Shown: piece by piece, positions 26,520 through 43,579 of the stretch
Numbering within the stretch: position 1 is the stretch's first letter
Layout of the letters: every line of letters starts with the position of its first letter
Virus record (IMG/VR): IMGVR_UViG_3300036820_000006
Span: 1-64,000 of that record
DNA: 64,000 nt
Origin: a virus
Reading direction: 5' to 3' (one strand)
The notes under the pieces: generated by a model
The model's database searches: none
What the model was told of the DNA's origin: nothing
Seen by the model: the letters and a program-made list of their open reading frames with translations, nothing else
Position numbers and translations under genes: made by a program

Positions 26520-26718
26520 CAAATCTGATGCACACTGGATGGAAAAAGCATTCGCCAACGCTCACCACCAGCTCAGACGAAAAACTCATACAAAGCCTGG
26601 GCAAAATATCTCCGCCCGCGCGCTCAAGCGGGAATCTGGGGCGAAATCGCTGAAAACGCGCCGCCAAGCGAACTTGGCGATGACGGCGCGGAAGATGAAC
26701 GCTCGACGAGGCAAGTAG
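26509..26718 (+). CDS. small basic phage protein
   Basis: GAGGAGG RBS; RRQANLAMT motif. Confidence 0.65.
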   Translation: MSADKSDAHWMEKAFANAHHQLRRKTHTKPGQNISARALKRESGAKSLKTRRQANLAMTARKMNARRGK

Positions 26719-27091
26719 CAACTGCGCTAGCCTCGCGCATCTGTCGCCACAGCGCTTCACCTCTAATAGTGCGCGCAGGCTCAGGCAACTGCGCCACTCG
26801 CTCCAGCTCTTGCTCCCACGCCTCAGCAAACGTAGGAGGCTCACCTGCGCCGTTCATCAATCGCCATAGAATAGCTTGCCGGTCAAATCTGACCTGTTCA
26901 CATTTGCCGGTCTTCAATCCTATTATTAGCTGCCGCACGGCCCACGCGCTGAATTGAGGGCCTGCTGCAGCGTCATCCTTAGCAACCGGTACGCCTAGCC
27001 TGCGCGCCAGTCGCGCTACATCACCTCGCTTCACACCCAGCAGCTCGCTAACATCTTGCACCGTGAATAGAGGTTTATCTTCCGCGCGCAT
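26624..27091 (-). CDS. MerR/excisionase-like HTH protein
   Basis: FTVQDVSELLGVKRGDVARLARRLG. Confidence 0.6.
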   Translation of the reverse strand: MRAEDKPLFTVQDVSELLGVKRGDVARLARRLGVPVAKDDAAAGPQFSAWAVRQLIIGLKTGKCEQVRFDRQAILWRLMNGAGEPPTFAEAWEQELERVAQLPEPARTIRGEALWRQMREASAVATCLVERSSSAPSSPSSLGGAFSAISPQIPA

Positions 27092-27114
27092 AGCGTTACT
27101 ATAGCGTTACTATA
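27091..27114. repeat. 11-bp direct repeat TAGCGTTACTA x2 between divergent genes
   Basis: tagcgttactatagcgttactata fills the 28-bp intergenic gap. Confidence 0.7.
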
Positions 27115-27119
27115 ACGCC

Positions 27120-27380
27120 ATGGCACAACGCCAGATTCCGATTCCCGAATCTTCGAACCTGCAGTCGGTCGTCTACGATGACGAGGCGATGGAGCTTATT
27201 GTGGTCTTTCATGGGGTCAGTGGTGGGAAAGCTAAATCGCCTAAATATGCAAACGCCACCTACCTTTTCAAATCTGTCCCTTCTAACGTGGTCGATGGCC
27301 TCGCGACCTCTGGCCTGCGTGCCACGGACTACTTCCGCAGCAACATCTATCGACAGTACATACATGAGCGGATTAGCTGA
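27120..27380 (+). CDS. KTSC domain protein
   Basis: SSNLQSVVYD..LIVVF..YLFKSVP..YFRSNI. Confidence 0.8.
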   Translation: MAQRQIPIPESSNLQSVVYDDEAMELIVVFHGVSGGKAKSPKYANATYLFKSVPSNVVDGLATSGLRATDYFRSNIYRQYIHERIS

Positions 27381-27444: not shown

Positions 27445-28338
27445 GTGTCCACCTTAGCGCAGGCAGTATCTAACTCGGCACCTTCTCTGTTAGCCGCTCA
27501 AGTGGCTGAACAGGCGCGCATCCAGGCTCCGCTTCATTCTGCAACTGCGCTTGCTAATGCGCTTGCTGAAATTTCTTCTGAGCCTGAAGGCGAAATCATA
27601 GCGCCTGCCTCTGCCGCCGCTACCGCTGCCCTGCGCGCACTCGCCGACCGCTTCTCCCGCGCTGTCGATCACATGCGGGTCGCCGCTTGTGAGCTGGCCT
27701 ACTGTGGCTACCGGCTGCAACAAGCTGCTGACTGGACTTCGTTAGGCTATCGCGATGAGATGGATTTTGCTTCCGCGCATGGCCTCAGCGATTCCACATG
27801 GCGCACCTACACCAAGCTTGGCGGCAGGCTCCAACACCTTGATCTCGCAGAGATGCAGGGCCTTACGCTAGCTGCCGCCAACCAAATCGTTCGCGTGAAC
27901 TGCGCGATCTGGGATGAATATCCATGGGTCGAGGAAGCCAAGCTGCTCAACGCGCGTGAATTCGCGATGCTGGTCGCCGACCGCAATCAGAAAGCGGCTG
28001 CGCTGCCCGCCGCGCTTGCCGCACCTCAACGCGCTGAACCGCGCATCCCGCTGGACGTGAATATCCCAGCGTCGCAGCAGCGCGTTATCAAGCAACAACT
28101 GGAAACAATTCGCAAACGTGAACACTTACCCACTGCTGCTGATGCGCTTACTAGCGCGCTATCCGCTGCTGAGCAATTCGCTGAACTCTCCGTAGTCGCG
28201 ACCGAACTCACCGCGTTGCCAGCTAGCTCGCCCCACGCGCGGACGCTGCTCGGTCAAATCCTCAGCACCCTTGGAGGGATGCCTGATGCCGCATTACAAG
28301 AAAAGGTTCCGTCTGCCCACGCCCTCGCCCGCGACTAG
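27445..28338 (+). CDS. hypothetical helical protein, possibly leaderless
   Basis: TGcTACGCT extended -10 ends 6 nt before GTG. Confidence 0.6.
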   Translation: MSTLAQAVSNSAPSLLAAQVAEQARIQAPLHSATALANALAEISSEPEGEIIAPASAAATAALRALADRFSRAVDHMRVAACELAYCGYRLQQAADWTSLGYRDEMDFASAHGLSDSTWRTYTKLGGRLQHLDLAEMQGLTLAAANQIVRVNCAIWDEYPWVEEAKLLNAREFAMLVADRNQKAAALPAALAAPQRAEPRIPLDVNIPASQQRVIKQQLETIRKREHLPTAADALTSALSAAEQFAELSVVATELTALPASSPHARTLLGQILSTLGGMPDAALQEKVPSAHALARD

Positions 28339-28675
28339 GAGATTCATTGATGGACGCGAAGTTTGTTTCAATAATCCGGCCGGACGAGCGGAATATGAGC
28401 ACCGCAAACAGTTCTTGTGGGAGCAGCAGGGAGGTGATTGCGCCTACTGCCGCTGCAGAATGTCCCTCTCTCAATGCCGCCTCACCGGAGGCGATTGGCA
28501 GCCTCGGCAGCAACTCCGTGACGACCGCATTTATGACGAATGCGGCCGACAGATTAACTACCTCGTGCATAAAGATTGCCTGCGACCATGGCACGAACGT
28601 GAGCAAGAGTGCGCAGCGGCAGATGTCGCAGCGGCTGCGACGGTGGCTAACTTATCCGATTCTGTTCTTGCTTAG
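28286..28675 (+). CDS. degenerate HNH-like zinc protein
   Basis: GGAGG RBS; LWEQQGGDCAYC...NYLVHKDC. Confidence 0.6.
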   Translation: MPHYKKRFRLPTPSPATRRFIDGREVCFNNPAGRAEYEHRKQFLWEQQGGDCAYCRCRMSLSQCRLTGGDWQPRQQLRDDRIYDECGRQINYLVHKDCLRPWHEREQECAAADVAAAATVANLSDSVLA

Positions 28676-31600
28676 CTTCGCGCTAACGGCTGTGGCCTCG
28701 GCGCAAGCTTCCAATCTCGGTACAATCTCCGGCCAGGTGATGACCACTTATGGCACCCCAGCGCAGAACGTGCCGGTGCGTGTGTGCGCGATCACCGCGA
28801 TAGGTGTGCCCTGCTCGACTGCGGGCGTGACTTTATATTCCGATGCCAACCTGACGCATGCCATTAGCAACCCAATCTCCACCGATCAGTATGGGAATTA
28901 TGCAGCGTTCACCGTCAATGGCGTTTATCTAGTACAAGTAACGCCGCAGGTTGGGTTGACTTATGCTTATTATGATGCAACCGGTGCGGGCAGTGGTGGT
29001 GGCAGCGGCTGCCAGACCATCTCCAATGGCGGGGACTGTGTATCGAACGATCCGAGCGTGAGCCAAGATATCGCACAACCGACGAATACAGAGTTCTCGG
29101 TTGATTTCCCCGATGCTAACGGACAAGAGAATCAATTCAATCTCAATCAATTCAATGAGGAGACCTTCGACGCGGAGTTCAATGACGTGCTTCTCTACTC
29201 AAATTTTCAACCGATGGATATTGAGAGCGCTGCAGGCGGATTTCTTGGTGCATTTGACAATTTACCGGTGCAGTTCTCGTGGGATGCCAGCGGAAACGTA
29301 CTTAGTGGTGCAGGTAGACCTTCGATTGCAGTCAATTTTGAAGACCCATATCCGGGATGGAATATCCCGCATCCCGGTACTTTACAGACTGCCGCCGCAG
29401 AAGGGTTAGTGATCGAAAGCAATTCTCCAGTCCAAGAGGGAATGGCAATTTCAGCAAGCACTGGCCATTCTTACACGCTGTTCCCCGATTATGTAACCAC
29501 TCAAGCCATCGTGATTCAGGGCACGTTAGGACTATCTCAGAGTGTTATTGGCACATATGGAACGGGATGGTCGCAATCCGCTACGGCTACCGCAGGTGAA
29601 CTTGATTCGGTGGGATATACGGGCAACATCAACAATGTGTGCGGAGCCGATCCATGCACTTATGTCGCGCCAGACTTCACGTGGTCGGCAACACCAGTTT
29701 CATTTTCGGATTGCAATATAAACGTGGCCTGTACCGGTGTCAGTCCTAGCACTGATGGGACACCGAAGATCAATTATCAACACGCTTACACAATGTTAAC
29801 AATCTCTGGGTCTTCCTGTGCCAGTGGTGCATTCAATGGCACATGGGCTGCTTATGAATTATATTCAACACCCACTGCACCTACAGTACCTCAATCAGCC
29901 CTCTCAATTTGGGGAACGAGCATAACGGCCACATGTCCATCTGACCGTCCCACATTTACGTGGACTCCAGTGCTAGGTGCATACGGCGAACAGGTGCAGT
30001 TTATCGACGCGACTAATGGTGGTTTCAACACGCTAATGCTTCCAGCAAGCGCACCCGTCAGCAGCCAAATTACGGGATCGCTAGGCGCGAAACTCCCAAT
30101 TGGATATACCCCATCCTTGCAGATGTGGGTGGGCCGCACGGATGGCACTGGCAACACCATCACTATCACGCCTTGGCCTGGTGACACCATCAACGGTTCG
30201 GCGGGGGCTTACACTCTCTCAGTGCCGCAATACGGTGTCGTGCATTTCCTCTCGGATGGAATCCACAACTGGTATGCAGAAGGCGGCGGAGGAGGTTCTG
30301 GGCTGACGGGCCTCATGGGCGACTGCCTAGCGGGCGATGACTCATCGGCCTGCACAGTGCGCATGGTTCACGCGCTCAACGGAGCGAAAACACTAACCAT
30401 CGACTCTGCAAATTCTGCAGGCACCCCTCTGGCGCTGTACTACAACGACACCGCTACTGACATCGCCTACTCAACCTATGAAGACCCGACTATAGGGCAA
30501 CAGCCCAGCGGGCCTCCGTGGCTCCCGACCCCAGCGCCGGTATTTGAATTGGACAATCTAAATACAGGCTTCGGCGGCTTCTTATTGGAGCACTCCAAGA
30601 TATTTCCCAATCTAGGATTGAATTTCTTGGACGATAACCCCGACGCCAATCCAATCTCGGGCACAATCGGGGGTAGCTTCTGGTTTGAGGATGCAACATT
30701 CCTCGATTCCCAAACTACCGGGACGCAGCATTACATTGGGCTACTCACTGCTACCGGGAATGAAGATGATAACGTAGAAATCATTGCTGGCGGTGAAACG
30801 AACGGCCAAACAAATTTTGGAGAACAACGCACAGCACAGCTTCAATTTCCGCGTGAAGTCAACATTACGGGGTTGTTTGCTAGCGGGTCTTTTTCCGTAG
30901 ATCACATCAACATATCAGGCGGCGACGTACCGTGTACCTCCAACACACTCGACTTCTCCGTTAGCGCAACACTCAAGAAGATTCCCGCCTGCACGATCAA
31001 TACGATTATTCCCCCATTTGACGCTGACGACGTTTTTCTCAATTCATCAGCCATTGTTTATATGTATGCTGATGGCGCTTTCACCACGACGAATGCGGGT
31101 AACATCGTCTCTGCTCCATTGACGGCGGTTCCGGGCCAACTTTACATGGCTCTCTACTACGGTGGCACAGGGGGTTACTTCCACACCTCGCCGGGCGTGT
31201 GGCGCATCTACCCGGTGGGCGGAACAGGCAGTAGCGTAACCTGGCCAACATCTACCGACCTCGTTATCAGTAACGGCACAAACTCCCCCGCTGGACTCGC
31301 CGAGGTGGACAGCGACTGTGTTGTGGGTTCGGGCGGAGCGTGGGTAGCTGGTCCCTGCTCAGGAACGGGAAGTGGAACAAATGTGAGCGTCAACGGTGGC
31401 GGCACGCTGGCGACGGCTAACCTGAACGGAACGACCCCCACAGCAGGAACCAACGGCATCAACGTGACGTGGCAGGTCAGCAGCACGAACGTGAGCGCGG
31501 AGATTGTGGGCGATGGGAACGCGGCGCATTTCCTGAACGGGACGGGTGCCTTCTCTACACCGAGCGGAGGCATGGTCTACCCTGGCGCGGGGATCGCGAA

Positions 31601-33458
31601 CTCCACCGGCAGCGCCTGGGGCACGAGCTACACGGTGGGCAACTCCGGTACCGACATTCCGCAGCTTTCGAGTGGCTTGCTGAACGCGTCGATCCTGCCG
31701 CTGGCGACAACGGGAGCGTTCGGCGCGGTGAAGCCTGACGGAACGACGATCACCATTTCTGCGGGAGTGATTAGCGCGGTTGGTGGAGGAAGCGGCCTGC
31801 CCTGCTCGGGCACCTGCACGGCGGGAGTGTTACCACTCTTCGGCTCAGGCGGAACCTCGATTACAAACTCGCTGCTGGATTATGGCGTGACCACCGCGAG
31901 CACGTTCACCTTCGGCGCGGGCGTGGATATCAACTCCACATCTGACCCTTCACAGATTGGACTGACCTACAACACAGGTCATGCGCCAACTGTCGGCGGT
32001 GCGACCACTGCCACCTACGCCGTCAACTCTTCCGGGCAGGCGATTGTAGCGGATGGAAGCGGAGCATACTCGCGACCCTGCACAGTTGCGAACTTCAGTT
32101 CGATCTGTAGCGGCGGGGGTGGATCAGGTGCGGGCCTCATAACCTACTCTGGCCCCTCTCTCAGCCTGAGTGGAACGCAGTACTTCCCCATTGGTGGCGG
32201 CGGAGCAGCGAGCGCAACCGAAGCGAACGTCGATCTGGACTCTCCGGCGGCGGCGACGATCCAGAACTTCTCTGTGCAGATGAGCGCGGCTCCCGGAGCG
32301 GGGAACTCAGTCGCCTATACGTGGCGCAAAAATGCCAGCAGTACGACCCTGACCTGCACCATCAGCGGAGCCTCAGCAACATCCTGCTCAGACACGACGC
32401 ACTCGTTTACGGTAGCGGCGGCAGACCTGATGACGATTCAGGCAGTGACTACGGGCACAATCGTCGGCACGCCTACGGTGGTCATGGGTACGCAGTTTGG
32501 GATTGCAGTCTCTGCGGGCGTGACATCTTTTACCGGTGATGGCACAGTGTTGAGCAACTCGGCTTCAACGGGAGCGGTCACTGCAACTCTAACCAGCGCA
32601 GGATCCCATACAGTCCTCGCTAACCTGACAGGCTCCAGCGCGTCTCCGACGTATACGGCAACGCAAGGCACCGACTCCTCACTTTTGACTTCCGGTACTG
32701 TTTCCGGCACGGCTGCAACGCTCTGCACGGATGCAAATGGCGGAGCGACGACGGTTGGATGTACGAGCGGAGGTTCGAGTGGACCGACCTTCAAGGGGGC
32801 GGTCTATACGCCTGCTACCAGTTCGTCTACGACGGCTGCTACTACGCCTTCGCTTGCCGGAGTGAGCAGCAGCGATTTGCTGATCGTTTTCTGTCGGTCT
32901 TTATTTGGGAACACAGTAACGATTACGTCGTCGCCATCAGAAACGTGGAACACGCTTTCGTCCGTTGGGTCTAACCCAACGGCGACCGTGCAGATGGCAT
33001 GGGCAATTGCTGGAAGCGCGGCGTCGCATACGGTTACATGCACGCAGAGTGGAACCGGGACATTCCAGTCAGCCATGCTTCTGGACTACAGCGGGACTGG
33101 AACTTCACTCAACACCAGCGTCAACAATAGCGGCACTTCCAGCGGCGTTCAATTCCCATTCAACGCGGGGACGGGTGGCACCTATTCAGCAGCTACAACA
33201 GCTTCAACCTCGCAACGTACGCTGATTGTTTTCTGCAACGCGGTCGGCGATCTCAAGCCGTACTACGCCGGATATATCGACGGAATACACGCGAATCTTA
33301 GAGTCGTTGACGGCCCCGGAACCGGCACGGGATCGACTACGAGTTCCAGCGCATGTGAAGACATCGTAACCACGACGGCTGTCAATCCTTTGACAGCAAA
33401 CTTCGGATTCAATAGCAACTCCGGCTTCGCCAACACGCTCGCAGCCTTCAACTATTAG
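28623..33458 (+). CDS. large Cys-rich fibre/adhesin-like protein with signal peptide
   Basis: MSQRLRRWLTYPILFLLSFALTAVASA|Q; G/S/T-rich modules joined by poly-Gly; ATTGAFGAVKPDGTTITISAGVIS fibre motif. Confidence 0.7.
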   Translation: MSQRLRRWLTYPILFLLSFALTAVASAQASNLGTISGQVMTTYGTPAQNVPVRVCAITAIGVPCSTAGVTLYSDANLTHAISNPISTDQYGNYAAFTVNGVYLVQVTPQVGLTYAYYDATGAGSGGGSGCQTISNGGDCVSNDPSVSQDIAQPTNTEFSVDFPDANGQENQFNLNQFNEETFDAEFNDVLLYSNFQPMDIESAAGGFLGAFDNLPVQFSWDASGNVLSGAGRPSIAVNFEDPYPGWNIPHPGTLQTAAAEGLVIESNSPVQEGMAISASTGHSYTLFPDYVTTQAIVIQGTLGLSQSVIGTYGTGWSQSATATAGELDSVGYTGNINNVCGADPCTYVAPDFTWSATPVSFSDCNINVACTGVSPSTDGTPKINYQHAYTMLTISGSSCASGAFNGTWAAYELYSTPTAPTVPQSALSIWGTSITATCPSDRPTFTWTPVLGAYGEQVQFIDATNGGFNTLMLPASAPVSSQITGSLGAKLPIGYTPSLQMWVGRTDGTGNTITITPWPGDTINGSAGAYTLSVPQYGVVHFLSDGIHNWYAEGGGGGSGLTGLMGDCLAGDDSSACTVRMVHALNGAKTLTIDSANSAGTPLALYYNDTATDIAYSTYEDPTIGQQPSGPPWLPTPAPVFELDNLNTGFGGFLLEHSKIFPNLGLNFLDDNPDANPISGTIGGSFWFEDATFLDSQTTGTQHYIGLLTATGNEDDNVEIIAGGETNGQTNFGEQRTAQLQFPREVNITGLFASGSFSVDHINISGGDVPCTSNTLDFSVSATLKKIPACTINTIIPPFDADDVFLNSSAIVYMYADGAFTTTNAGNIVSAPLTAVPGQLYMALYYGGTGGYFHTSPGVWRIYPVGGTGSSVTWPTSTDLVISNGTNSPAGLAEVDSDCVVGSGGAWVAGPCSGTGSGTNVSVNGGGTLATANLNGTTPTAGTNGINVTWQVSSTNVSAEIVGDGNAAHFLNGTGAFSTPSGGMVYPGAGIANSTGSAWGTSYTVGNSGTDIPQLSSGLLNASILPLATTGAFGAVKPDGTTITISAGVISAVGGGSGLPCSGTCTAGVLPLFGSGGTSITNSLLDYGVTTASTFTFGAGVDINSTSDPSQIGLTYNTGHAPTVGGATTATYAVNSSGQAIVADGSGAYSRPCTVANFSSICSGGGGSGAGLITYSGPSLSLSGTQYFPIGGGGAASATEANVDLDSPAAATIQNFSVQMSAAPGAGNSVAYTWRKNASSTTLTCTISGASATSCSDTTHSFTVAAADLMTIQAVTTGTIVGTPTVVMGTQFGIAVSAGVTSFTGDGTVLSNSASTGAVTATLTSAGSHTVLANLTGSSASPTYTATQGTDSSLLTSGTVSGTAATLCTDANGGATTVGCTSGGSSGPTFKGAVYTPATSSSTTAATTPSLAGVSSSDLLIVFCRSLFGNTVTITSSPSETWNTLSSVGSNPTATVQMAWAIAGSAASHTVTCTQSGTGTFQSAMLLDYSGTGTSLNTSVNNSGTSSGVQFPFNAGTGGTYSAATTASTSQRTLIVFCNAVGDLKPYYAGYIDGIHANLRVVDGPGTGTGSTTSSSACEDIVTTTAVNPLTANFGFNSNSGFANTLAAFNY

Positions 33459-33466
33459 TGAACACT

Positions 33467-34693
33467 ATGAAGCGTATCCTTTCCATCCTCGCGCTCTTCC
33501 CGCTGGCCCTGCCCGCGCAAACCATCAACTACACCCCTGTGCGCTACACGGTTGCGATCTCCTCTGACGGCGGTGTCACCTATTCGCCGCTCACCAGCGC
33601 CTCCGGCATCGGCTCGGTTACCTACACGCCGCCTTATTTCGTGCCGATGTGTTCAAACGATGGCGGGGCTACCTATTCGCAATGCTCATTCTCGGGTGGC
33701 GGTGGCTCAGTGTCACTGACATCACCCAACTCCACACTGAGTTTGAGTCCGTCACCGATCGTTGGTACGGGAACATTGGATTTGAACCTGACCCACGCGA
33801 ACATCTGGACCGGATCGCAAACCTTCTCCAACGGCGGCGGCACGCCCGACACCGTGCAGGCCTACAACGATGGCACCGCAGGCGAGGGAGTATTTTTCAA
33901 CACAGGCGGTGCGCAAAAGGGCGGAGTCATGGACAATGCGGGGTCCTTGAATTGGACGAGCTTTGACACGGGCGGAAATTTCAGCCTCTGCACTACGGCC
34001 GATTGCGCGGCAGCAGATTTGGATATTGATTACATAGCCACGGGCAGCGGTTTCTGGAAAGTAAATCCGATTGGATCGGGAACGACGTTAGTGCTTGGAG
34101 CGTTTGGCCAGTCGATCAACGTGAATGGCGTTTATGTAGGCGGAGCAAACAGTGGAGTCACTGGAGCGATTACAAGCGTTGATGGTGACACAGGAAACAC
34201 ATCTTTGTCTGACACTGTGCATGTCAACTTAAGTATCGGCACCGCCAGTTCGCACACTGCAGAACTAACTGCAGAAGTCAGTGGAGTGGCGCTCCCCTAC
34301 ATCACAGGATCAACACAGTGCTTGCATGTCAGCACCGCAGGGCTCATCAGTGGATCTGGTGCGGATTGCGGTGGAGGCACGGCGAACATCGTCGCTTCGG
34401 CCGAGGTGGTTAGTTTCTCCGCTACGCCGACATTTTCCATCGCCTTCAACGTCTCGCGCATCGTGCTCACCGGAAACATCACCTCTTTCACCTTGGGAGC
34501 CGGAGCTGACGGCCAGAGCAAAACTCTGTGCTTCAAGCAGGGCAGCGGAGCCTACACCGTGTCACCGCCCAGCGCCGTTCATGGGTTCTTCACTCTCGGC
34601 ACGATTAGCGGCGACTGGAATTGCCAAGCCTTTACCTACGACAACACCGATTCCATCTGGCTCGCCTCGACTACAGGAGTTATCAACCAGTGA
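33467..34693 (+). CDS. fibre-like protein with signal peptide
   Basis: MKRILSILALFPLALPA|Q; LNLTHANIWTGSQTF fibre motif. Confidence 0.7.
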   Translation: MKRILSILALFPLALPAQTINYTPVRYTVAISSDGGVTYSPLTSASGIGSVTYTPPYFVPMCSNDGGATYSQCSFSGGGGSVSLTSPNSTLSLSPSPIVGTGTLDLNLTHANIWTGSQTFSNGGGTPDTVQAYNDGTAGEGVFFNTGGAQKGGVMDNAGSLNWTSFDTGGNFSLCTTADCAAADLDIDYIATGSGFWKVNPIGSGTTLVLGAFGQSINVNGVYVGGANSGVTGAITSVDGDTGNTSLSDTVHVNLSIGTASSHTAELTAEVSGVALPYITGSTQCLHVSTAGLISGSGADCGGGTANIVASAEVVSFSATPTFSIAFNVSRIVLTGNITSFTLGAGADGQSKTLCFKQGSGAYTVSPPSAVHGFFTLGTISGDWNCQAFTYDNTDSIWLASTTGVINQ

Positions 34694-36738
34694 AAAAGCT
34701 CATCACAGTTCTCTCTTTTCTATGCTGCCTGAGTCTTTCTGCGCAGACCGTCAACGGCGTAGCCAATCAGAGCATATCCGGTCCCACTCTCACAGCACCC
34801 GGAGTCGGAGCGGCTGCGGCTGGCGATACGGGAAGTCCTTATGCGACTATCGCGAACGGTCTAATCAAGGCCAATCAGTTCACGTTCAGCGACGGGACCA
34901 ACGGATGGTGCGCCGCCCCCTTCTACTGCGGCCTCGCTCCAAGCTCCGGTCCCGTCGCTTATCAGATGTATGGCGCGGACGCGATCCTGACCATGCTGGC
35001 CTTCCCTGGCCGCTTCCAGGCGGCTGACTTTCTCAACCTGGTGAACAAGTTTGTAGGCGCGAAGAACACAAACGGCAGTGCAACCTATCCGGTTGGCGAC
35101 TTTCCGGAGGTCGTCAAGCAGGACGGAACGGCTGGCCAGTTCTGCTCCGGGAACGATCTCTATTGTCACTATGCAACCGGCGACGGTCGCATATCGGTTC
35201 CGCTCGCCCTCTACCTCTACTGGAAGCGCACCGGCGATCTGGCGCCGTATAGGGCGAACGTCGCAGCCATCATCACGGCACTGGCGATTCCGCCGCGCAA
35301 CGGCACTACGGGATGCATCACGATTGTGGCCGGGCAGGAAGACATCCCTGGTATCGGCTATCTCGAACAGATGCGCCCGATCGGCGATGTGGCCGATGCG
35401 AGTGTGTGGATGGCCTACGACTACGAGGCGCTGTATCTGATGGCGACCGCGGCCGGTGACACCTCCAACGCCAGCATCTTCAACACGCAATTCACGAGCC
35501 TGCAAACCTGCGTCACGACGACGCTGACCGACGGCTCGACCAAGATGCTGTGGTTCGCGAACGGTGCCCAGATGCACGAGCTGGACATTGTGGACTCGAC
35601 CCTTGCGGCGTATCCGTTGCTGGGCAGCAGCGTCGGGCCGCTGCTTTCGGGCACGCAAATCACAGCGATAGGCACCTGGCTCGACTCGAATTATTCGAGT
35701 CTGGTTGACACCCAGGGGTACGCAAAGATGGTCAACGCCTGTGACGTGGTGGGGAAGATTCCCTCGGGCGGGGGAGCCCCTTACACCTCCGACGGCACAA
35801 CGACAACCAGCTATCAGTGTGCTTTCTGGGCTACGTTCGGCGGGTATTTTGCCGATATTCTGAGCCCCGTCGACTTAGCTTCGGCGCAGTCATATATGGC
35901 CGCATTCCTCAACGGCATGTCGCCCGGCGTCGAGCACTATAACAGCGGAACTCCGGCCCTCGGCAACGCTCCATTGCTGATTACGGCAGGGCAGTCGATT
36001 CGCCTAGCCAGCGAGCTTATCCCGATGGACGTTCCGCCAATTACGACCGTGCTGTGCGCCGCCGACGGTTTCGGGCGCTGCACAAATTATTTGCCTGGAG
36101 ACGTCAACGTCGGCAACTTTCACGACCCGGCGGTGCCCATTCCGTTTCTGCTGAAGCAGACAGGGACCTACGCCTACTCCGGCTTCAACACGATTGACGC
36201 CTATCTTTTTCCGAATGCGGCCAACGGGGCAACGCTCGGTATGGCTCTGGGCACGGCAATCTCCAGCAACAACGTTCTTTATTTATCGTTCCACCCCAAC
36301 GGTTCGGGATCGACAAGCAACTTTGGCAGCCTTGACCTCTGGGGACATAACAACGAACTCACGTGGTGGCCATCCGGAGATGTTGGTGTCGGGGGTGCGT
36401 CAACTGACCAGAACAAACTCTTCTGGGTTGGATCGACGGCTCAGTTCAATGTCGATGCGAGCGGCAACGCGGCCACCTCCGGCACGATGGGCGCAGCGGC
36501 TTATAACCAGCACGCCGCCAGCAATACAGGGGGTACCTGCACGATGTCCTCCGGGACTTCCTGCACGATCACCTTGGGTCATACCTATACGACGCCTGTC
36601 TGTATTGTGACCCAACAGAGCGGCACGCTGACCGGCGGTGTAGTGGGTTGCACGGTTTCAGGAACGACAGTCACCATCACCGCCGCCACGTCGAATTCAG
36701 AGGCGTGGGGGGCGTTCGTGTTCGGAAATCCCAACTAA
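34690..36738 (+). CDS. exported six-hairpin glycosidase-like protein with fibre-like C-terminus
   Basis: GTGA overlap; MKKLITVLSFLCCLSLSA|Q; YLYWKRTGD motif of (alpha/alpha)6 glycosidases. Confidence 0.6.
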   Translation: MKKLITVLSFLCCLSLSAQTVNGVANQSISGPTLTAPGVGAAAAGDTGSPYATIANGLIKANQFTFSDGTNGWCAAPFYCGLAPSSGPVAYQMYGADAILTMLAFPGRFQAADFLNLVNKFVGAKNTNGSATYPVGDFPEVVKQDGTAGQFCSGNDLYCHYATGDGRISVPLALYLYWKRTGDLAPYRANVAAIITALAIPPRNGTTGCITIVAGQEDIPGIGYLEQMRPIGDVADASVWMAYDYEALYLMATAAGDTSNASIFNTQFTSLQTCVTTTLTDGSTKMLWFANGAQMHELDIVDSTLAAYPLLGSSVGPLLSGTQITAIGTWLDSNYSSLVDTQGYAKMVNACDVVGKIPSGGGAPYTSDGTTTTSYQCAFWATFGGYFADILSPVDLASAQSYMAAFLNGMSPGVEHYNSGTPALGNAPLLITAGQSIRLASELIPMDVPPITTVLCAADGFGRCTNYLPGDVNVGNFHDPAVPIPFLLKQTGTYAYSGFNTIDAYLFPNAANGATLGMALGTAISSNNVLYLSFHPNGSGSTSNFGSLDLWGHNNELTWWPSGDVGVGGASTDQNKLFWVGSTAQFNVDASGNAATSGTMGAAAYNQHAASNTGGTCTMSSGTSCTITLGHTYTTPVCIVTQQSGTLTGGVVGCTVSGTTVTITAATSNSEAWGAFVFGNPN

Positions 36739-36759
36739 TTTTAGGCGAAGGAAACCACA

Positions 36760-39700
36760 ATGGGCGTAGGAGACATTCTCGGAGAAACCAGCAAGAGGCT
36801 AAGAATAGCCGCATCTCTTCTTCTGCTCTCGTTCATTCTCTTCCCGCTCGCCCTCTTCGCGCAGACGGTTCAGACCTTCGCGGTGCCGGCGGCTATAAGC
36901 GTCCCCGTGGATACCGTGCAGACCTGCAAAGCCATCGTGAACGGCTCTCTCAATCAGGCAGTGACGTGGAGTTCAACAGGAGGGATGTTGAGCGCGGGGC
37001 AAGATCCCAACACCGAAGGCATCACCTCCGCGAGCACGGGGACCTTCACGCTGACAGCAACCTCCGTTGCCGATGGGACGAAGACCGCGAGCTGCGTGGT
37101 TACCTTCACCGGCGATCCGTCCGTAGCGACAACCTATCCGCGGCTGATTCTTCCCGCCAGTCAAGTCGCTACCATGCAGGCCAAGGGGTTGACCAGCAAT
37201 CCTCTGTACTCCGCGATCTTTACTCCAGCACAAGCTGCGTATACAGCCGACTCGGCGATCTGGACGTTTTCGACGTGGAGCGGATCGGCCTGCACCGGAG
37301 GGTCGGGACCAAGCTCGGACCAGAGCCAGAACTTCGTGGAGAACGACGCCTTCTGGATGGCGCAAGTCGCGCTGATGGATAACAGTTCCAGCAACCGGAA
37401 CCAGTACGGCTGCCCAGCGCACGATGTCTTCATGACCAACATTGAATACGCCATCAATGGTGAGTTCAAGGTCGATGGAAACCGCATGTCGGGGAGCGCA
37501 GACCAGTTCGCGTTGACCGCCGACCTACTGCTGGGCGGAGGCTATCTCAGTTCCGCCGATCAGGCTGTAGTGCGAAACTTCCTCGCCGTGGTTGCGTACG
37601 ACCAGGTGAACTCCTTCTATGGCTCAGAGGGGGTTATTGGAAGCTACAACAGCGCGACGCAGTTCACGAATTTCGGGGATAGCAGCTACGTCTTCATGCG
37701 CGCCATGGGGAACAACTACACGCAGTCGCGCATGTTGATCCTCACGGCGGCGGCGCTTCAGTTCGACGACAACACGAGCGCCGACCCGCTGATGCCCACT
37801 GGGGGCGTAGTGAGCGCGCCGCCGCAAAATCAAGGCAGCACATGGACGGTAGGAGAGCAGTTCACCATAGGCTCCGGCGCGGCGGTGGGGCAATGCACCG
37901 CAGTATCGGGCGGCGCCTGCACGGCAACGGAAGTCATTACTGCCTCGACCGGGTATAACAACACCTCGAATCCCCTCAGCACAACAGCGACTTCGGGCAG
38001 CGGAACCGGCTTGACGGTGAATATCGTGGCGCTCAACACCTGCGGCGCGGCGCGAGGGACCTTATGCCCGGACGGCAGCGGGGGCGACCTGCACGCCTAT
38101 TGGGGCTACATGACCGGCGCGATGCTATACAAATACTGGGCCAACGAAGAAGACCCCGGCATCACGCAGCAGGCCTACAACGCCGCATACGCCAACCTGC
38201 CGTCCAATCCTTCATGTAGCACGGAGTGGGGCGGGACGGCCCCCTGCATGGGCAGCAGCCAAGGCGGGGAGGCAAGCGAGGGAACATTTTACGGCAATGC
38301 CTTCGCCGGATTTATTCAGACAGCGATTGCGATTCAGAATGCCGGGTACTTCAACCCGTCGCTGTACGGCCCGCAGATGAGCGCGCTGACTTCCAGCTAC
38401 AACGATCAGCGCATACTCGCCGATTACACGGCTATGACGGGGATGAGCGGACTTCAGGCCGAGCCTGCTCGTTGGAACTTCCTCACCAACGGCGATTCGG
38501 ACAACAATTACGTCTACCCAGCCAGCTACAGCACCGAATCGACGATGTTGATGGACGACTACCTTAGCGGAAGAACCGACCGCGCGAACAATCTGGAGTG
38601 GATTGTATTGAACAGCGCGTGGGGCGGGGCGGATGGAACCCATAGCTGCACGATGGGACCGTGCGGGTTCATCAACTCTCTCGCCGATCCTTTTGGCGAA
38701 GCGACGCTGCCGGACATCTTCATCGCGTTGCCAGCGGGTAACCCGGTGACCGTAAATCCTCCCACCGACCCGCGTGCGACGCTTCCGACCGACTGGTACG
38801 ACATCGGCAATCAGCATATCGCCGTGCGGGATAACGGTTGGGCCACGGGAACGGGAACGATCTTCTCCACCTATTGCACCAACACCCACATCGACCACGA
38901 ACACGGGTTTTGCGGAGGCTTTGATGTGTACTCGAACGGCGAGTACATCGCAAAAGGCCGGACGGAGTTCAACGACTACAACGATGCGATGAGCGCCGCG
39001 ATGTACAAGCAGACCGCTCCGGCGTTGCAATTCCCCGGCCAGACGACCTGCACCGTGAATCCTTCGTCAAACTTCTGTTCCTATTGGGAGGGGTTCACTT
39101 TCGGAGGGGAGATGTGGCACGGAACGCAAGGCGGAGTGGCCACGCTGCTGCATTCGGACTCGCCGGTCTACGTGGCCTCGACCGCCGACGACACAGTTCT
39201 CAACACGGGAGCCGCCACCAACAGCCACTACTCCCCATTCAATCAAACATCCCTGCGGTCTACCTCGCAAATCTATCTGCGCGGATCGCAACAGGTCATC
39301 ACCTACAACCGGGTCGCCACCGGGACGAATTCGTGGAACAAGTCGAACTTCTTCGTCACGACCGGAGCGCCGACGATCAGTGGCGGGACGGCGACGTGGC
39401 TGACCCGCTCGGGAACGCAGAAGGCCGCGTGGACACCTTTGCTCCCTGCCGGTGCGACGTTCACCAACGCCAGGTTGCCGCAGTATGTGACCATCACCGC
39501 CGCGCATTCCACACTGAACAGCGGCTCAACAATGCAGGCAACCTGCACGGTGACCTACGCGGACGGCTCGACGGCTGACGTATCGTCCCTGACGGGCTGG
39601 GCTGGGAATTTGACGTGGACGGTCGATACTCCGACCGTTGCCACCGTGGCATCGGCGGGCTTGATTACGCCGGTTGCGGCGGGCAGCTTCAATCTGCGCT

Positions 39701-40239
39701 GCGGCTGGCTGGGCGTGTATGGCAACGCCCCAATCACCATCACCTCCGGCTCGTCCAGTGGGACGACAAACGTTGTCGGCGACCAAGACCAGCTTGACGA
39801 CTGGGAGCCGTACACATTGGTCCAGGTTGATGCTGGGAACGCCACGAGCACGAACTTCCTCTCCGTATTGCAGTGGGGAGCGTCCAGCTTCACTCCTGCG
39901 ACGGCAACGGCGGTCACTTCGAGTTCGGGCCAGACCTTCGACGGCACTCTGGTGGGTACGACGCTGGCCATGTTCATGCGCGTTCCTGCTACGTTCACCG
40001 GCGTGACTTTCCCAGCCTCCAGCGCCACAACGCTGTACGTGGCGGACCTAACCCCGAACACGAGCTACACGGTTTCGGGCGCAGGGACTCCGGGTTCCTG
40101 CACAACCGATCCGGCTGGGGTATGCACCTTCTCTGCCACCGGGACAGGCAACATCAGCGTCAGTCCCGGTGGCGTGGCCGCACCGCCAGTCAATTTAACT
40201 GGGACTATCAGCATTACAGGAAGCGCGGTTATCCGATGA
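36760..40239 (+). CDS. exported Ig-like + heparinase II/III-like (polysaccharide lyase-like) protein
   Basis: Signal ending ALFA|Q; two Ig-like segments (VTWSSTGG; LTWTVDTPTVATVASAGLIT); DHEHGFCGGFDVYSNGEYI. Confidence 0.6.
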   Translation: MGVGDILGETSKRLRIAASLLLLSFILFPLALFAQTVQTFAVPAAISVPVDTVQTCKAIVNGSLNQAVTWSSTGGMLSAGQDPNTEGITSASTGTFTLTATSVADGTKTASCVVTFTGDPSVATTYPRLILPASQVATMQAKGLTSNPLYSAIFTPAQAAYTADSAIWTFSTWSGSACTGGSGPSSDQSQNFVENDAFWMAQVALMDNSSSNRNQYGCPAHDVFMTNIEYAINGEFKVDGNRMSGSADQFALTADLLLGGGYLSSADQAVVRNFLAVVAYDQVNSFYGSEGVIGSYNSATQFTNFGDSSYVFMRAMGNNYTQSRMLILTAAALQFDDNTSADPLMPTGGVVSAPPQNQGSTWTVGEQFTIGSGAAVGQCTAVSGGACTATEVITASTGYNNTSNPLSTTATSGSGTGLTVNIVALNTCGAARGTLCPDGSGGDLHAYWGYMTGAMLYKYWANEEDPGITQQAYNAAYANLPSNPSCSTEWGGTAPCMGSSQGGEASEGTFYGNAFAGFIQTAIAIQNAGYFNPSLYGPQMSALTSSYNDQRILADYTAMTGMSGLQAEPARWNFLTNGDSDNNYVYPASYSTESTMLMDDYLSGRTDRANNLEWIVLNSAWGGADGTHSCTMGPCGFINSLADPFGEATLPDIFIALPAGNPVTVNPPTDPRATLPTDWYDIGNQHIAVRDNGWATGTGTIFSTYCTNTHIDHEHGFCGGFDVYSNGEYIAKGRTEFNDYNDAMSAAMYKQTAPALQFPGQTTCTVNPSSNFCSYWEGFTFGGEMWHGTQGGVATLLHSDSPVYVASTADDTVLNTGAATNSHYSPFNQTSLRSTSQIYLRGSQQVITYNRVATGTNSWNKSNFFVTTGAPTISGGTATWLTRSGTQKAAWTPLLPAGATFTNARLPQYVTITAAHSTLNSGSTMQATCTVTYADGSTADVSSLTGWAGNLTWTVDTPTVATVASAGLITPVAAGSFNLRCGWLGVYGNAPITITSGSSSGTTNVVGDQDQLDDWEPYTLVQVDAGNATSTNFLSVLQWGASSFTPATATAVTSSSGQTFDGTLVGTTLAMFMRVPATFTGVTFPASSATTLYVADLTPNTSYTVSGAGTPGSCTTDPAGVCTFSATGTGNISVSPGGVAAPPVNLTGTISITGSAVIR

Positions 40240-40835
40240 GAGCTACGCTGCTCCTGCTCGCGTTGCAGTCGGTCGCATTGACATGGACGCCTTCTCCAAC
40301 CCCCGGAGCAGTATCGAGCGTCTATCGCATCGGAGATGCGTGTCCTTCAACTATTACAGGCGGTATCCAGCTTGCTAGCGGACTTACTGGGGCAACATTC
40401 ATCGATACCACCCCGGTTGCAGGCTCAACCTATAGCTACTACCTGACCGCCATCGCACCGGGCTATGCCACTTCACCTCCATCTAATTGTGTTACGGAGT
40501 CGATACCTAACCCAGCCCCGCCGCCCCCGCCGCCGCCACCGCCAGCACTCACGCCTGCCCTGCTCACAATTGGCGTTTCAGCCTCAAACGTAAATATGAG
40601 TAAAGTTTCCGTAGCGGTCAAAGCTGCCACTGGAAAAGTTGTGCCTCAAGGTACCGTTACATGGACCATACAAGGCACCACTATTTTCACCACCACACTC
40701 ACTCGGCAAGGCCAGACTTCCGCCTCAATATGCACCATGTTGATGCAGTTTTTGCCGGTCACTATTACATATTCCGGCAGCAGCACCTTTGCCCCATCTA
40801 CAATTACGCTGCCTGCTACAGGTTACAGAAATTGA
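40236..40835 (+). CDS. Fn3-like + Ig-like protein with poly-Pro linker
   Basis: ATGA overlap; hydrophobic N-terminus; VALTW..FIDT..YSYYLTA..PPSN; PQGTVTW..TYSGSSTF. Confidence 0.65.
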   Translation: MRATLLLLALQSVALTWTPSPTPGAVSSVYRIGDACPSTITGGIQLASGLTGATFIDTTPVAGSTYSYYLTAIAPGYATSPPSNCVTESIPNPAPPPPPPPPPALTPALLTIGVSASNVNMSKVSVAVKAATGKVVPQGTVTWTIQGTTIFTTTLTRQGQTSASICTMLMQFLPVTITYSGSSTFAPSTITLPATGYRN

Positions 40836-40943
40836 TTGTGTTAGCTCCATAGGGCGCTTTAAAGTGATTGCGCACCTTAGGGTATCTAACCTCAGGAAAT
40901 CCGACCCTCGAAGACGGTGCATCCTAAGGAGGAAAGTGGGCCA

Positions 40944-41276
40944 ATGCCGCCAGAGGGGTCAGCATTCATGCAAGCTAAGATCGATGGACTGGAAAAAGTG
41001 GTAGCAGGATTGTCGGCTACGATGGAAGCCAATCACAGGCAGAATCGTGGGGATATCCATCGATTGTTCGACAATCAACAGACCATCGCTGACTCAATTC
41101 GTGTAGGGTTAGATCATATCGCAGATAAAATTAGTATTCGCTGCGATGGAATTGAGAGCGATGTTATGGACTTAAGATTGAAGTGGGCACGCGCTACGGG
41201 CTACTCAGCAGCGGTAGCTGGATTATGCGCGCTGCTGTTCGAACTTATCAAATTGGGGATAGATCACATTCGATGA
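40944..41276 (+). CDS. coiled-coil protein with C-terminal TM (holin/XhlA-like)
   Basis: AAGGAGG RBS; C-terminal AAVAGLCALLFELI; precedes endolysin. Confidence 0.55.
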   Translation: MPPEGSAFMQAKIDGLEKVVAGLSATMEANHRQNRGDIHRLFDNQQTIADSIRVGLDHIADKISIRCDGIESDVMDLRLKWARATGYSAAVAGLCALLFELIKLGIDHIR

Positions 41277-41719
41277 ACAGTCATGCTGATTACGCGCTTC
41301 TCGCCTTATGTTTGTGGAAAGAAGATCGTTCTGGAGGAAACACTGGTATGACTGCTGTGGCCTGCGTAGTGCGCAACCGGGCCACACGTAATCACACCAC
41401 TTATTATGAGGAGCTAACTGAGCCTGAGCAATTCTCCTCACTAACCGCCAAAGGCGACCCGGAGCTGACGGTATTCCCCAAGCCGAACGACATCTGGTGG
41501 CAGGCAGCACAGCTTATCGCGGGCAATGTGGTCGATGGCAACGTGGCTGACATCACCGGAGGGGCGACGATGTATTATGCGCCCCGAGGGCTGGGGCCGA
41601 CCACTAAAACATTTACGCCACCTGGTGGCCAGCTGGTGCCGTTTCCTGAGGACTGGAATGCAACCGTGCTCACTTACACTGTAACCATAGGCGGACAACT
41701 CTTCTTTCGGCCGAATTAG
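41273..41719 (+). CDS. SleB/Hydrolase_2 cell-wall hydrolase (endolysin)
   Basis: LALCLWKEDR..GMTAVACVVRNR..QFSS..DITGGATMYY..IGGQLFF. Confidence 0.85.
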   Translation: MNSHADYALLALCLWKEDRSGGNTGMTAVACVVRNRATRNHTTYYEELTEPEQFSSLTAKGDPELTVFPKPNDIWWQAAQLIAGNVVDGNVADITGGATMYYAPRGLGPTTKTFTPPGGQLVPFPEDWNATVLTYTVTIGGQLFFRPN

Positions 41720-41760
41720 CCCCTGAAAACTCTTTACTCACCTCTGGCTTGCATGCTCTC

Positions 41761-42105
41761 ATGCGGGCCATGAGCAAAGCATGGACATCATTGCAGACGT
41801 GGCTGAGCAAGCATTCCATCAGTTCCAAAACGATAGCCTCTGTATGGCTGTTTATCGTAGCGATGTTCTATGCAGAGCCAAGCTTCCGCGAATATGTAAA
41901 GCAGGCTTATACCCACCTACCGCTCTGGCTGCACGGTTTTATTGCGGGGGTGGTTCTGCCCGCGTGCTTGTTCTGGAAGACGTGGAAGACGGTGCGGGAG
42001 ACTCCAACAGCTTCAGTAGCGCGAACGGCCTCAGCGACTAGCTCAGCGAACAGCTCGGCGGCTAACTCATTCGGTTCTTCAGGCCCACTCAATCTCAACC
42101 AGTAA
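41761..42105 (+). CDS. putative holin
   Basis: Two hydrophobic helices; two Met starts (41761, 41770) separated by an Arg; after endolysin. Confidence 0.55.
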   Translation: MRAMSKAWTSLQTWLSKHSISSKTIASVWLFIVAMFYAEPSFREYVKQAYTHLPLWLHGFIAGVVLPACLFWKTWKTVRETPTASVARTASATSSANSSAANSFGSSGPLNLNQ

Positions 42106-42119
42106 GGGAGAAGGCAGCA

Positions 42120-42704
42120 ATGAAACAACTCACGCTCACGCTCAAGCCTAAGTCCAAGCTCGACCGCAGGTGCTTCCTCAAACTCACAGGCACGGCTGCG
42201 GCAATCACTGTGATACCTAGCTCGCTGCTGCTCTCTGGCTGCAATTCCGAATCCATCGTGCAGGGCCTCAACATCGTGCTTCAGTCGGCCGAAGGCATTC
42301 TCAACGTGCTTGCGCCCGGTGATCCATGGGCTGCGGATTTCCAGCAAGCGGTAGCCGCGCTGCAGCAGGCCGAGGCGGCATGGCAAGGCGGCGGCGCGAT
42401 CAACATTATCGTGTCGGCGCTGAACACGCTGGAAGCGGTCACTGCTGTGGTTCCGTTCACCGCGCCTTATTCTGCATTGATCGACATTCTCGTGGCTGGA
42501 ATTGAATCAGTGCTGCTGCTGATTCAGAACCAGAATCCATCAGTGTCGGTCGCAGCGGCCGCGACTGCGCACCCGAATCCGCACGAGGGCAAATATCATC
42601 TGGGCAGGCCACATGCATTTCAGACCCCGGTGGGCGTTTACCGCAAGGCATGGAATGATGCCGTGAAAGCGAACCCCGTGCTGGCGGCGGCTAAGCTGCA
42701 GTAG
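42120..42704 (+). CDS. Tat-signal lipoprotein (spanin candidate)
   Basis: DRRCFLK twin-arginine motif and LSG|C lipobox. Confidence 0.7.
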   Translation: MKQLTLTLKPKSKLDRRCFLKLTGTAAAITVIPSSLLLSGCNSESIVQGLNIVLQSAEGILNVLAPGDPWAADFQQAVAALQQAEAAWQGGGAINIIVSALNTLEAVTAVVPFTAPYSALIDILVAGIESVLLLIQNQNPSVSVAAAATAHPNPHEGKYHLGRPHAFQTPVGVYRKAWNDAVKANPVLAAAKLQ

Positions 42705-42769: not shown

Positions 42770-43579
42770 ATGGCATTGAAGCGACTTTACACTGCTCTAC
42801 GCGATTCACTTGATCCGCGTGATAGAGTGCTGCCTCAACCCGCATCTCTTATGTCACCTTTGCCTACTGTGCCTAATGTGAGCTTAGCGCAATGGCTGGG
42901 GACTGTGAAGGACCAAGGAGCTACCGGGAGCTGCACGGCGCAAGCAGGCACGGGCATTTTAGAATGGCATTACAACCGCTTTAAATCTCAATCTCTGGCA
43001 TTCTCACCACAATTCCTGTATCGTGCCGAGCGGATTGTTGAGGGCGATGTCACGATGGATGGCGGCGCACAGTCTCGCACTATGATGAAAGTGCTGTGCC
43101 AGTATGGGACCTGTTTAGAAAGTAGCGATCCTTACAATGGGAATACCGGTTGGCAGCAGCCTACTACTCTAGCGCAACTAGCAGAAGCGCGTGGCTATCG
43201 CATGGGCGCTTATCATCGCGTCAGTGATCTTGAAACATTGAAAGGCGTGCTCAGGTCCGGTTATGTGTCCTCACTCGCTATTGAGGTTTACGAAAGCTTT
43301 GAGACGCAGCTGGTAGCGGAAACCGGTACTGTGCCAGTACCCGCTAAAAGTGAGCAGTTCCTTGGCGGCCATGAGGTTTATTGCTATGGCTATGACGATG
43401 TGCGCAGCGTGCTGCTATGCCGAAATTCGTGGGGACTGGACTGGGGCGCGGCTGGAGACTTCACTCTTCCGTATGGCTATTGGTCAGCGGGCTATGTGAT
43501 GGATTCGTGGTGCTGTCATTTTGGGTCTCCTTGGAAGCTAGCGCCGTCGCTAGCGAACCTACCCAACCAGCACCCATAG
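42770..43579 (+). CDS. papain-family (C1) cysteine peptidase
   Basis: VKDQGATGSCTA (Gln, Cys), GGHEVYCYGY (His), RNSWGLDWG (Asn). Confidence 0.9.
   Translation: MALKRLYTALRDSLDPRDRVLPQPASLMSPLPTVPNVSLAQWLGTVKDQGATGSCTAQAGTGILEWHYNRFKSQSLAFSPQFLYRAERIVEGDVTMDGGAQSRTMMKVLCQYGTCLESSDPYNGNTGWQQPTTLAQLAEARGYRMGAYHRVSDLETLKGVLRSGYVSSLAIEVYESFETQLVAETGTVPVPAKSEQFLGGHEVYCYGYDDVRSVLLCRNSWGLDWGAAGDFTLPYGYWSAGYVMDSWCCHFGSPWKLAPSLANLPNQHP

Follow-up and report, generated by a model that had tools for sequence, protein, structure and literature searches.

Predicted signal peptides in a five-gene cassette of a probable acidobacterial phage suggest export of fibre-like proteins and probable glycan-cutting enzymes ahead of lysis

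Background

Tailed-phage assembly is, in the textbook account, wholly cytoplasmic. A locus in the IMG/VR virus record IMGVR_UViG_3300036820_000006 raises the question of whether some virion parts could instead be prepared outside the cytoplasm. We analysed positions 1 to 64,000 of this record (the window), the opening 64 kb of a virus genome that is complete, at 99,275 bp, and has direct terminal repeats (DTR; CheckV 100%). The genome is probably that of a soil phage of Acidobacteriota, a major soil phylum with, to our knowledge, almost no characterised phages. An initial annotation, made from the sequence alone, had pointed to five consecutive genes, here called G1 to G5 (28623-40835), whose products seemed to resemble fibres and to carry signal peptides (leaders), and which were placed between tail and lysis genes. 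The questions raised by the locus are whether these proteins leave the cytoplasm, what they are, and where they end up.

We propose that G1-G5 are made late in infection and pass through the host Sec machinery into the periplasm, where they are oxidised, and that the members of fibre type dock at lysis; we put the probability of this reading at about 0.55. The separate steps of export, cleavage, disulfide bonding and, above all, incorporation into the virion are ones that we infer, and they are held with different strengths, as set out below.

Results

Signal peptides of the cassette proteins

The cassette comprises the following genes, with a slash marking the predicted cleavage site of each leader.

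28623-33458, plus strand: G1, ATG start, 1611 aa; leader MSQRLRRWLTYPILFLLSFALTAVASA/Q (residues 1-27, ASA/Q)
33467-34693, plus strand: G2, ATG start, 408 aa; leader MKRILSILALFPLALPA/Q (residues 1-17, LPA/Q; Pro at -2)
34690-36738, plus strand: G3, GTG start overlapping the G2 stop as GTGA, 682 aa; leader MKKLITVLSFLCCLSLSA/Q (residues 1-18, LSA/Q)
36760-40239, plus strand: G4, ATG start, 1159 aa; leader ...RLRIAASLLLLSFILFPLALFA/Q (residues 1-34, LFA/Q)
40236-40835, plus strand: G5, ATG start overlapping the G4 stop as ATGA, 199 aa; leader MRATLLLLALQSVA/LTW (residues 1-14, SVA/L), short and weak

Leaders were called with our own heuristic for n-, h- and c-regions, not with a trained predictor, and the heuristic was applied to all 137 open reading frames (ORFs) of the 99-kb genome. 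The criteria for a Sec type-I leader were positive charge in the n-region, an uncharged and hydrophobic h-region of roughly 7-15 residues (sometimes more), small residues at -3 and -1, and no lipobox Cys. In G1 to G4 a basic n-region is followed by an uncharged hydrophobic stretch of 14-19 residues (14-15 in G1-G3, 19 in G4) and then by A/Q; G1, G3 and G4 display every feature of the definition, G2 displays them with its Pro at -2, and G5 is short (14 aa). Among the 137 ORFs, only cassette genes unite charge in the n-region with an h-region 14-19 residues long and A/Q, and the remaining hydrophobic N-termini of the genome resemble membrane anchors. The +1 residue is Gln in G1-G4 and Leu in G5, whose homologue in the viral contig L002 (45% identity) has Gln at this position, after a clear leader, MKLFFIIIMQVAILATG/QTP, that ends G/Q.

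The leaders recur in relatives of the cassette proteins. They are present in nine of nine metagenomic homologues of G3 (P0007-P0015), nearly all ending A/Q, and in both full-length homologues of G4 (P0025 and P0026), while a chromosomal G4 homologue bears a lipobox. Among representatives of the clusters that hold the C-terminal domain of G2, 114 of 149 have a leader, 90 with Gln at +1, and the remainder resemble fragments. In the family of the G2 N-terminus, leader sequences vary freely and the first mature residues (QTINYTPP.Y...) are conserved together with a Cys pair. Judged by these patterns, the leaders of G1-G5 behave as cleaved leaders would, with a drifting sequence and a fixed mature N-terminus. 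The claim that five consecutive genes carry signal peptides has therefore been upheld: four have textbook Sec type-I leaders ending A/Q, the fifth is short and has a homologue with a clear one, and the feature is conserved in relatives. Furthermore, in the loci of Terriglobia (Acidobacteriota) that we studied, leaders of host genes end before Gln in four of five cases, and the phage appears to copy this secretion grammar of its host. A search of two Terriglobia genomes for a type-I glutaminyl cyclase (PF05096), which could turn a +1 Gln into pyroglutamate, was negative; it did not extend to M28-type cyclases, and the host of the phage is uncertain.

The leader is absent or hidden in two of the five public gene calls. 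The public call for G3 (P0006, 590 aa) begins at an internal Met, which omits 34690-34965 and loses the leader, and that for G1 (1702 aa) begins 92 codons early, which adds 28347-28622 and buries it. Residues 15-92 of G3 align with homologues at 60% and homology thus reaches upstream of the internal Met, so that the longer G3 start is correct. Automated annotation would overlook signal peptides of this kind.

Cysteine pairing and composition

The mature forms of G1, G2, G3 and G4 contain 28, 8, 14 and 20 Cys, respectively, all even numbers and all arranged in short sequential pairs, 14 of them in G1. Gaps of at most 20 residues account for 26 of the 35 within-pair gaps and for 2 of the 31 between-pair gaps. 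When Cys were placed at random, the mean was 11.1 and the maximum 21, and the observed 26 was reached in 0 of 20,000 trials, so the many short-range Cys pairs noticed earlier are real. The Cys content of the major capsid protein (MCP) and of the other large structural-module proteins checked is 0-0.7%. Across 69 related viral loci, ORFs of at least 300 aa have a median Cys content of 1.87% when they bear a leader versus 0.60% for the others, about a threefold difference. All five cassette proteins are rich in Gly, Ser and Thr, and the Bacteroidota-type O-glycosylation motif D[ST][AILVMT] is not enriched in them.

The pairing of Cys argues for an oxidising compartment. Together, conserved leaders, a fixed mature N-terminus, and Cys that are even in number, sequentially paired and scarce in the structural-module proteins checked strongly support the suggestion that the cassette proteins are exported and disulfide-bonded, and from these sequence features we hold export of G1-G5 to be very probable.

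Identity of G1, G2, G3 and G5

The cassette probably encodes two fibre-like proteins (G1 and G2), two glycan-cutting enzymes (G3 and G4) and a small partner (G5). The description of all five as fibre-like is consequently retained for G2, which has a fibre-tip fold, and for the fibre-like G1, and is given up for G4, a heparinase-II-like lyase, for G3, with its enzyme-like core, and for G5, a small Ig-like protein.

In G2 the leader is followed by a mature N-terminal module that is conserved (QTINYTP...PMCS...SQC), then by a shaft of low model confidence, and the protein ends in a beta-sandwich tip (about residues 305-408). In an AlphaFold2 (AF2) monomer model made from 70 sequences, residues 310-408 alone are confident (predicted local distance difference test, pLDDT, 97), and the model leaves the shaft unresolved. 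Compared with solved structures in VIA, the tip has as its six best matches only phage proteins, namely tail or capsid spikes and proteins related to baseplates or fibres (top Z 8.6, 8.3 and 7.7); they include the tailspike of Acinetobacter phage Solidus (Z 8.6) and TSP4 of CBA120 (Z 7.7), as well as a baseplate protein from a Klebsiella phage and a capsid spike from a Pseudomonas phage. In BFVD the tip gave 268 matches, several of them named fibre or minor tail proteins, with a root-mean-square deviation of 1.8 Å over 105-108 residues. According to the model, then, G2 carries a phage-fibre tip fold. A type IX secretion system C-terminal sorting domain was rejected as the leading idea for this C-terminus, which has no Por_Secre_tail or CHU_C profile match and a phage-spike fold. 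In some relatives the C-terminal domain of G2 is non-terminal.

In G1 the leader precedes a beta domain of about 90 aa that is conserved; a long body, rich in Gly, Ser and Thr and fibre-like, comes next, and the protein closes with a module also found in G3 homologues. Residues 13-116 are 59% identical to P0041, which then continues into a different body, and its last part (1387-1610 of G1) is similar to the C-terminal ends of P0012 and P0014. G1 had no match in Pfam, PHROG or PDB sequence searches, and it appears fibre-like by composition and mosaicism only. In G3 the leader is followed by a conserved enzyme-like core (about residues 50-460) and a Cys-paired, beta-rich C-terminus; a G3-family profile found nothing useful among PDB sequences and an Atlas search gave no usable match. 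G3 is probably an enzyme, and probably glycan-cutting, with a six-hairpin fold as a candidate. In G5 a short leader precedes what looks by eye like an Fn3 domain, which a poly-Pro linker joins to an Ig-like domain; Pfam matches to Big_3_5 and Big_1 are weak, and G5 reads as a small Ig-like protein; overall, Pfam and PHROG searches with G1-G3 and G5 gave essentially nothing. N- and C-terminal modules are shuffled among G1, G2, the G3 homologues and proteins of the viral contigs L002, L003 and L007, as in receptor-binding proteins.

G4, a putative exopolysaccharide lyase

G4 comprises the leader, an Ig-like domain, an alpha/alpha toroid plus beta-sandwich lyase, a Big_2 domain (910-977, Pfam) and a C-terminal beta-sandwich. 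When its AF2 model (23 homologues; pLDDT 72.8) was compared with the PDB by Foldseek, heparinase II came first (3e7j/2fut; E 6.4e-15 for 3e7j; TM (target) 0.60), with alginate lyases of PL15/PL17 and further glycosaminoglycan lyases ranked after it. Atlas leads reached 0.81-0.84 at most, a sequence search against the PDB returned nothing useful, and the toroid fold of G4 is rare among viral models (BFVD). The model suggests that G4 works like heparinase-II/PL lyases, but we do not file it as a member of a lyase family because the Pfam profile test failed, with no PF07940 (Hepar_II_III_C) match at E<=0.1.

Relatives of G4 were found in 4 of the 201 genomes sampled from Terriglobia, the class of an Edaphobacter metagenome-assembled genome (MAG) described below. 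The nearest bacterial copies are two in tandem, with 52% identity (G146:C2:1382761-1388640, locus L081), and one of their leaders ends A/Q. Around them lie, by eye, glycosyltransferases, a UDP-GlcNAc 2-epimerase and Wzx- and Wzy-like proteins, in a cluster that resembles an exopolysaccharide (EPS) biosynthesis locus. Because of its predicted fold and of these nearest relatives in an EPS-like locus, G4 is most likely an EPS lyase of host origin.

Distribution among phages and prophages

The G2 domain was found in 272 clusters and in 70 IMG/VR contigs, and the G2 family is absent from the 201 Terriglobia genomes searched and from 50,697 GenBank phage records. Since the family occurs in 70 viral contigs and in 0 of 201 Terriglobia genomes, it is phage-borne, not chromosomal. 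Searches of the same GenBank records by tblastn with G2, G4, the MCP and a 1393-aa protein gave no match. Of the ORFs that carry the G2 domain in viral contigs, 49 of 68 have leaders, and 19 of the 69 related viral loci contain between three and five leader-bearing genes in succession. Contig L002 is syntenic and has, in this order, a head gene, five leader genes with modules in common with G2 and G4, the G5 homologue, and the same coiled-coil membrane protein as is found downstream of G5.

In a prophage of the Edaphobacter MAG, a leader-bearing homologue of G3 (L001:9164-11584) stands directly after minor tail proteins and the central tail fibre J (phrog_31, E 2e-102). By gene order, this homologue occupies the side-fibre slot of a lambda-like prophage.

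Another related locus encodes a 276-aa protein (L010:5430-6260) with a T7-gp17-like N-terminal adaptor domain and no leader, two genes upstream of a leader-bearing fibre. From its sequence, this protein is a candidate cytoplasmic docking partner.

Lysis genes and genome context

Intergenic gaps within G1-G5 are 8, -4, 21 and -4 nt, and the lysis genes begin 81 nt after G5, with gaps from there of -7 to 81 nt. G1-G5 and the lysis cassette thus form a single tight operon. The lysis genes are:

40917-41276, plus strand: coiled-coil protein with a C-terminal membrane helix (read from the translation)
41270-41719, plus strand: Hydrolase_2 endolysin without a leader (Pfam PF07486)
41749-42105, plus strand: two-helix membrane protein (read from the translation)
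42120-42704, plus strand: lipoprotein with a twin-arginine-type motif (RRCFLKL) and then a lipobox (LLSGC) (read from the translation)

As the endolysin has no leader, lysis requires holin holes, through which particles and periplasm mix. The lipoprotein may be an outer spanin exported by the twin-arginine (Tat) pathway. Directly 3' of the lysis genes, at 42770-43579, is a papain-family cysteine protease (Peptidase_C1, E 7e-14) without a leader.

Other features of the genome are:

28271-28675, plus strand: small Cys/His-rich ORF in another frame, with a 53-nt overlap with the G1 start; HNH-like by eye
2877-3863: major head protein (phrog_9953)
48992-52693, minus strand: uracil-DNA glycosylase and family A DNA polymerase (UDG-PolA) fused in one 1233-aa ORF
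minus strand: PIF1 helicase
genome 89468-91726, beyond the window: large terminase (TerL)
genome 96614-98503, beyond the window: portal

The Cys/His-rich ORF has no Pfam match, and its domain is kept upstream in P0041, the sole relative of G1, where it shares a frame with the leader and the N-domain. A gene fusion, a frameshift or a gene call that reads through may explain this. The genes at about 4-26.5 kb form a structural module by position alone: most had no match at all, the only products recognised being the head protein (phrog_9953) and a 'structural protein' family, and no tail protein was recognised among them. Placement of the cassette between tail and lysis genes, as initially described, is roughly right, with the lysis genes 81 nt away on one side and the structural module on the other. 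A 2-kb stretch with a minus-strand HTH-like gene parts the structural module from G1; judged by eye, this gene and a small ORF resembling KTSC occupy 26624-27380, before the exported cassette, and a KTSC gene is also found upstream of the leader-bearing cluster in Cellulophaga phage phi46:3. Between the large terminase and portal genes, at genome 93347-95625 (L072:9347-11625), lie a glycosyltransferase (phrog_2170) and a methyltransferase (phrog_8156).

Discussion

Proposed route and its weak points

In the route that we propose, G1-G5 would be transcribed late as one unit with the holin/endolysin cassette and exported by Sec, and signal peptidase I would cleave G1-G4 before Gln, as is usual for secreted proteins of the host lineage, and G5 before Leu. 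DsbA-type oxidation would join consecutive Cys as the chain emerges, giving many short sequential disulfides; no DsbA, thioredoxin or signal peptidase was found among the phage's own genes. The proteins would build up in the periplasm and, being co-transcribed with the lysis cassette, would form a pool that is full when the inner membrane is breached. Holin holes would then let cytoplasmic particles meet periplasmic G1-G5, and G1 and G2 would dock through their conserved mature N-terminal modules. The EPS lyase G4, and probably G3, would either be docked too or be freed to clear host exopolysaccharide.

Attachment of at least the fibre-type members to the virion stands, in our judgement, at even odds, and is argued from the analogy with leader-bearing proteins of Cellulophaga phage phi18:3 detected by tandem mass spectrometry (MS/MS) and from the fibre-slot position of the prophage G3 homologue. 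We suggest more tentatively, at slightly less than even odds, that fibres and depolymerases made as Sec pre-proteins, disulfide-bonded in the periplasm and mounted at holin opening represent a widespread, undescribed route, used here and in many phages of Bacteroidota and other soil phages.

Several points weigh against the proposed route. The leader calls come from our own heuristic, and for this phage the case is drawn from sequence and predicted structure. In a diderm, a leader takes a protein to the periplasm only, and no N-terminal module of the cassette proteins matches a known virion-docking domain in Pfam or PHROG. The leader of G4 could be simply inherited, as its nearest chromosomal relatives bear leaders too. 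With the tail genes unrecognised, other receptor-binding proteins without leaders may exist. Finally, MS/MS of purified particles can detect co-purifying proteins, which bears on the phi18:3 precedent, and the Cellulophaga phage proteins differ from G1-G5 in having few Cys (0-4), a Bacteroidota host and no detectable sequence similarity.

Alternative explanations

Free soluble depolymerases are well known, and the main rival to virion docking is that G1-G5 are exported and never become part of the particle: a secreted toolkit of EPS lyase, glycanase and lectin-like fibres, gathered in the periplasm and freed at lysis, would loosen EPS, destroy receptors on debris and aid spread. The fold and the ancestry of G4 favour this, since it is a monomer-type heparinase-II-like lyase with a fold rare among viral proteins, and its nearest bacterial copies are secreted and stand in an EPS biosynthesis locus; the lack of a known docking domain points the same way, and about 5% of soil prophage carbohydrate-active enzymes (CAZymes) bear signal peptides (PMC13507307). 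However, G2 has no enzyme domain, and its fibre-tip fold and conserved mature N-terminal module make little sense in a free protein. Furthermore, a G3 homologue takes the side-fibre slot of a prophage, leader-bearing equivalents were detected in phi18:3 virions, and the modules show the mosaicism of receptor-binding proteins. On balance we regard free release as unlikely, though a serious competitor.

That prophage slot, after J, is also a classic moron site. It could thus be argued that the proteins decorate the surface of the infected or lysogenic cell, serving superinfection exclusion or adhesion in the manner of lambda Lom and Bor or of the Q-rule proteins of Porphyromonas gingivalis phages, and five leader-plus-Gln genes of P. 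gingivalis prophages have indeed been proposed to modify the host surface (PMC10367356). This is improbable for a 12-kb cassette of a 99-kb DTR genome that is translationally coupled into the lysis cassette, an arrangement that suggests late rather than lysogenic expression, and fibre and lyase folds suit attack on a cell surface, not its masking. Least probable of all, in our view, is that the leaders give no export in infection, whether because precursors join particles in the cytoplasm (for example, with Sec saturated or blocked late), because the N-terminus has another role, or because starts were mis-assigned. The public calls for G3 and G1 would fit mis-assigned starts, and the hydrophobic segment of P0041 is internal to a longer open frame. 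Against this stand the homology of G3 upstream of its internal Met, the classic n/h/c build with h-regions in G1-G3 too short for a membrane anchor (that of G4 has 19 residues), the Cys pairing, which points to an oxidising compartment, and conservation of the leader in more than 100 clusters.

Implications

If the proposed route is true, the last step of virion assembly takes place outside the cytoplasm, export is tied to the timing of lysis, and components of the secretion machinery are host factors for phage production. Phages would gain disulfide bonding, and perhaps other envelope modifications, yielding hardy extracellular fibres. A signal peptide should not serve to exclude phage origin or a virion role, and biotechnological production of such depolymerases and fibres would have to be carried out in the periplasm or under oxidising conditions. 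The theme would extend to Acidobacteriota, the likely host, in a case where paired cysteines stand out very clearly and the lyase probably originated in an EPS locus.

Comparison with known systems

Classical tail fibres and tailspikes have no signal peptide, and they fold and assemble in the cytoplasm. Those with depolymerase or fibre function, such as lambda Stf, T7 gp17, P22 gp9 and CBA120 TSP1-4, resemble the cassette in being encoded by late genes that adjoin lysis genes, in combining a conserved N-terminal module with swapped distal modules, and in cutting or binding glycans. Unlike them, G1-G5 bear leaders and paired Cys, and G4 is modelled as a toroid lyase, not a trimeric beta-helix. 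In our literature searches on signal peptides in tail fibres, we met no account of fibres routed through Sec. With heparinase II, the PL15-PL17 alginate lyases and EPS-operon lyases such as AlgL, G4 shares the toroid plus beta-sandwich, and the bacterial homologues of G4 are likewise secreted proteins with genes in an EPS locus; it differs from heparinase II and the PL lyases in its extra Ig-like domains, in the failed match to Pfam Hepar_II_III_C, and in being phage-encoded within a fibre cassette.

The Q-rule, by which Sec/signal peptidase I leaders are cleaved before Gln, has been described as Bacteroidetes-specific (PMC5837995), and the five leader-plus-Gln genes of the P. gingivalis prophages are of unknown function (PMC10367356). 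G1-G4 resemble Q-rule substrates and these phage proteins in their predicted cleavage by signal peptidase I before Gln and in the apparent copying of host secretion grammar by phage genes. They differ in that the likely host is here an acidobacterium and in that the P. gingivalis phage genes are not fibre-like.

The closest parallel in gene organisation is found in cultured Cellulophaga phages of the Pachyviridae. In phi18:3 (KC821620), gp085, gp086 and gp087 are annotated in the record as 'structural protein' on the basis of experimental MS/MS proteomics, and each opens with a leader ending S/Q or A/Q. In phi46:3 (KC821622), gp079-gp083 are five leader genes in a row, followed by lysis genes, and RefSeq names among them are pectate lyase, tail fibre and virion structural protein. 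We found no paper that discusses the leaders of these phages, the source study (Holmfeldt et al. 2013) being outside the literature searched. As with G1-G5, both phages thus present three to five consecutive large leader-bearing proteins encoded just upstream of the lysis genes.

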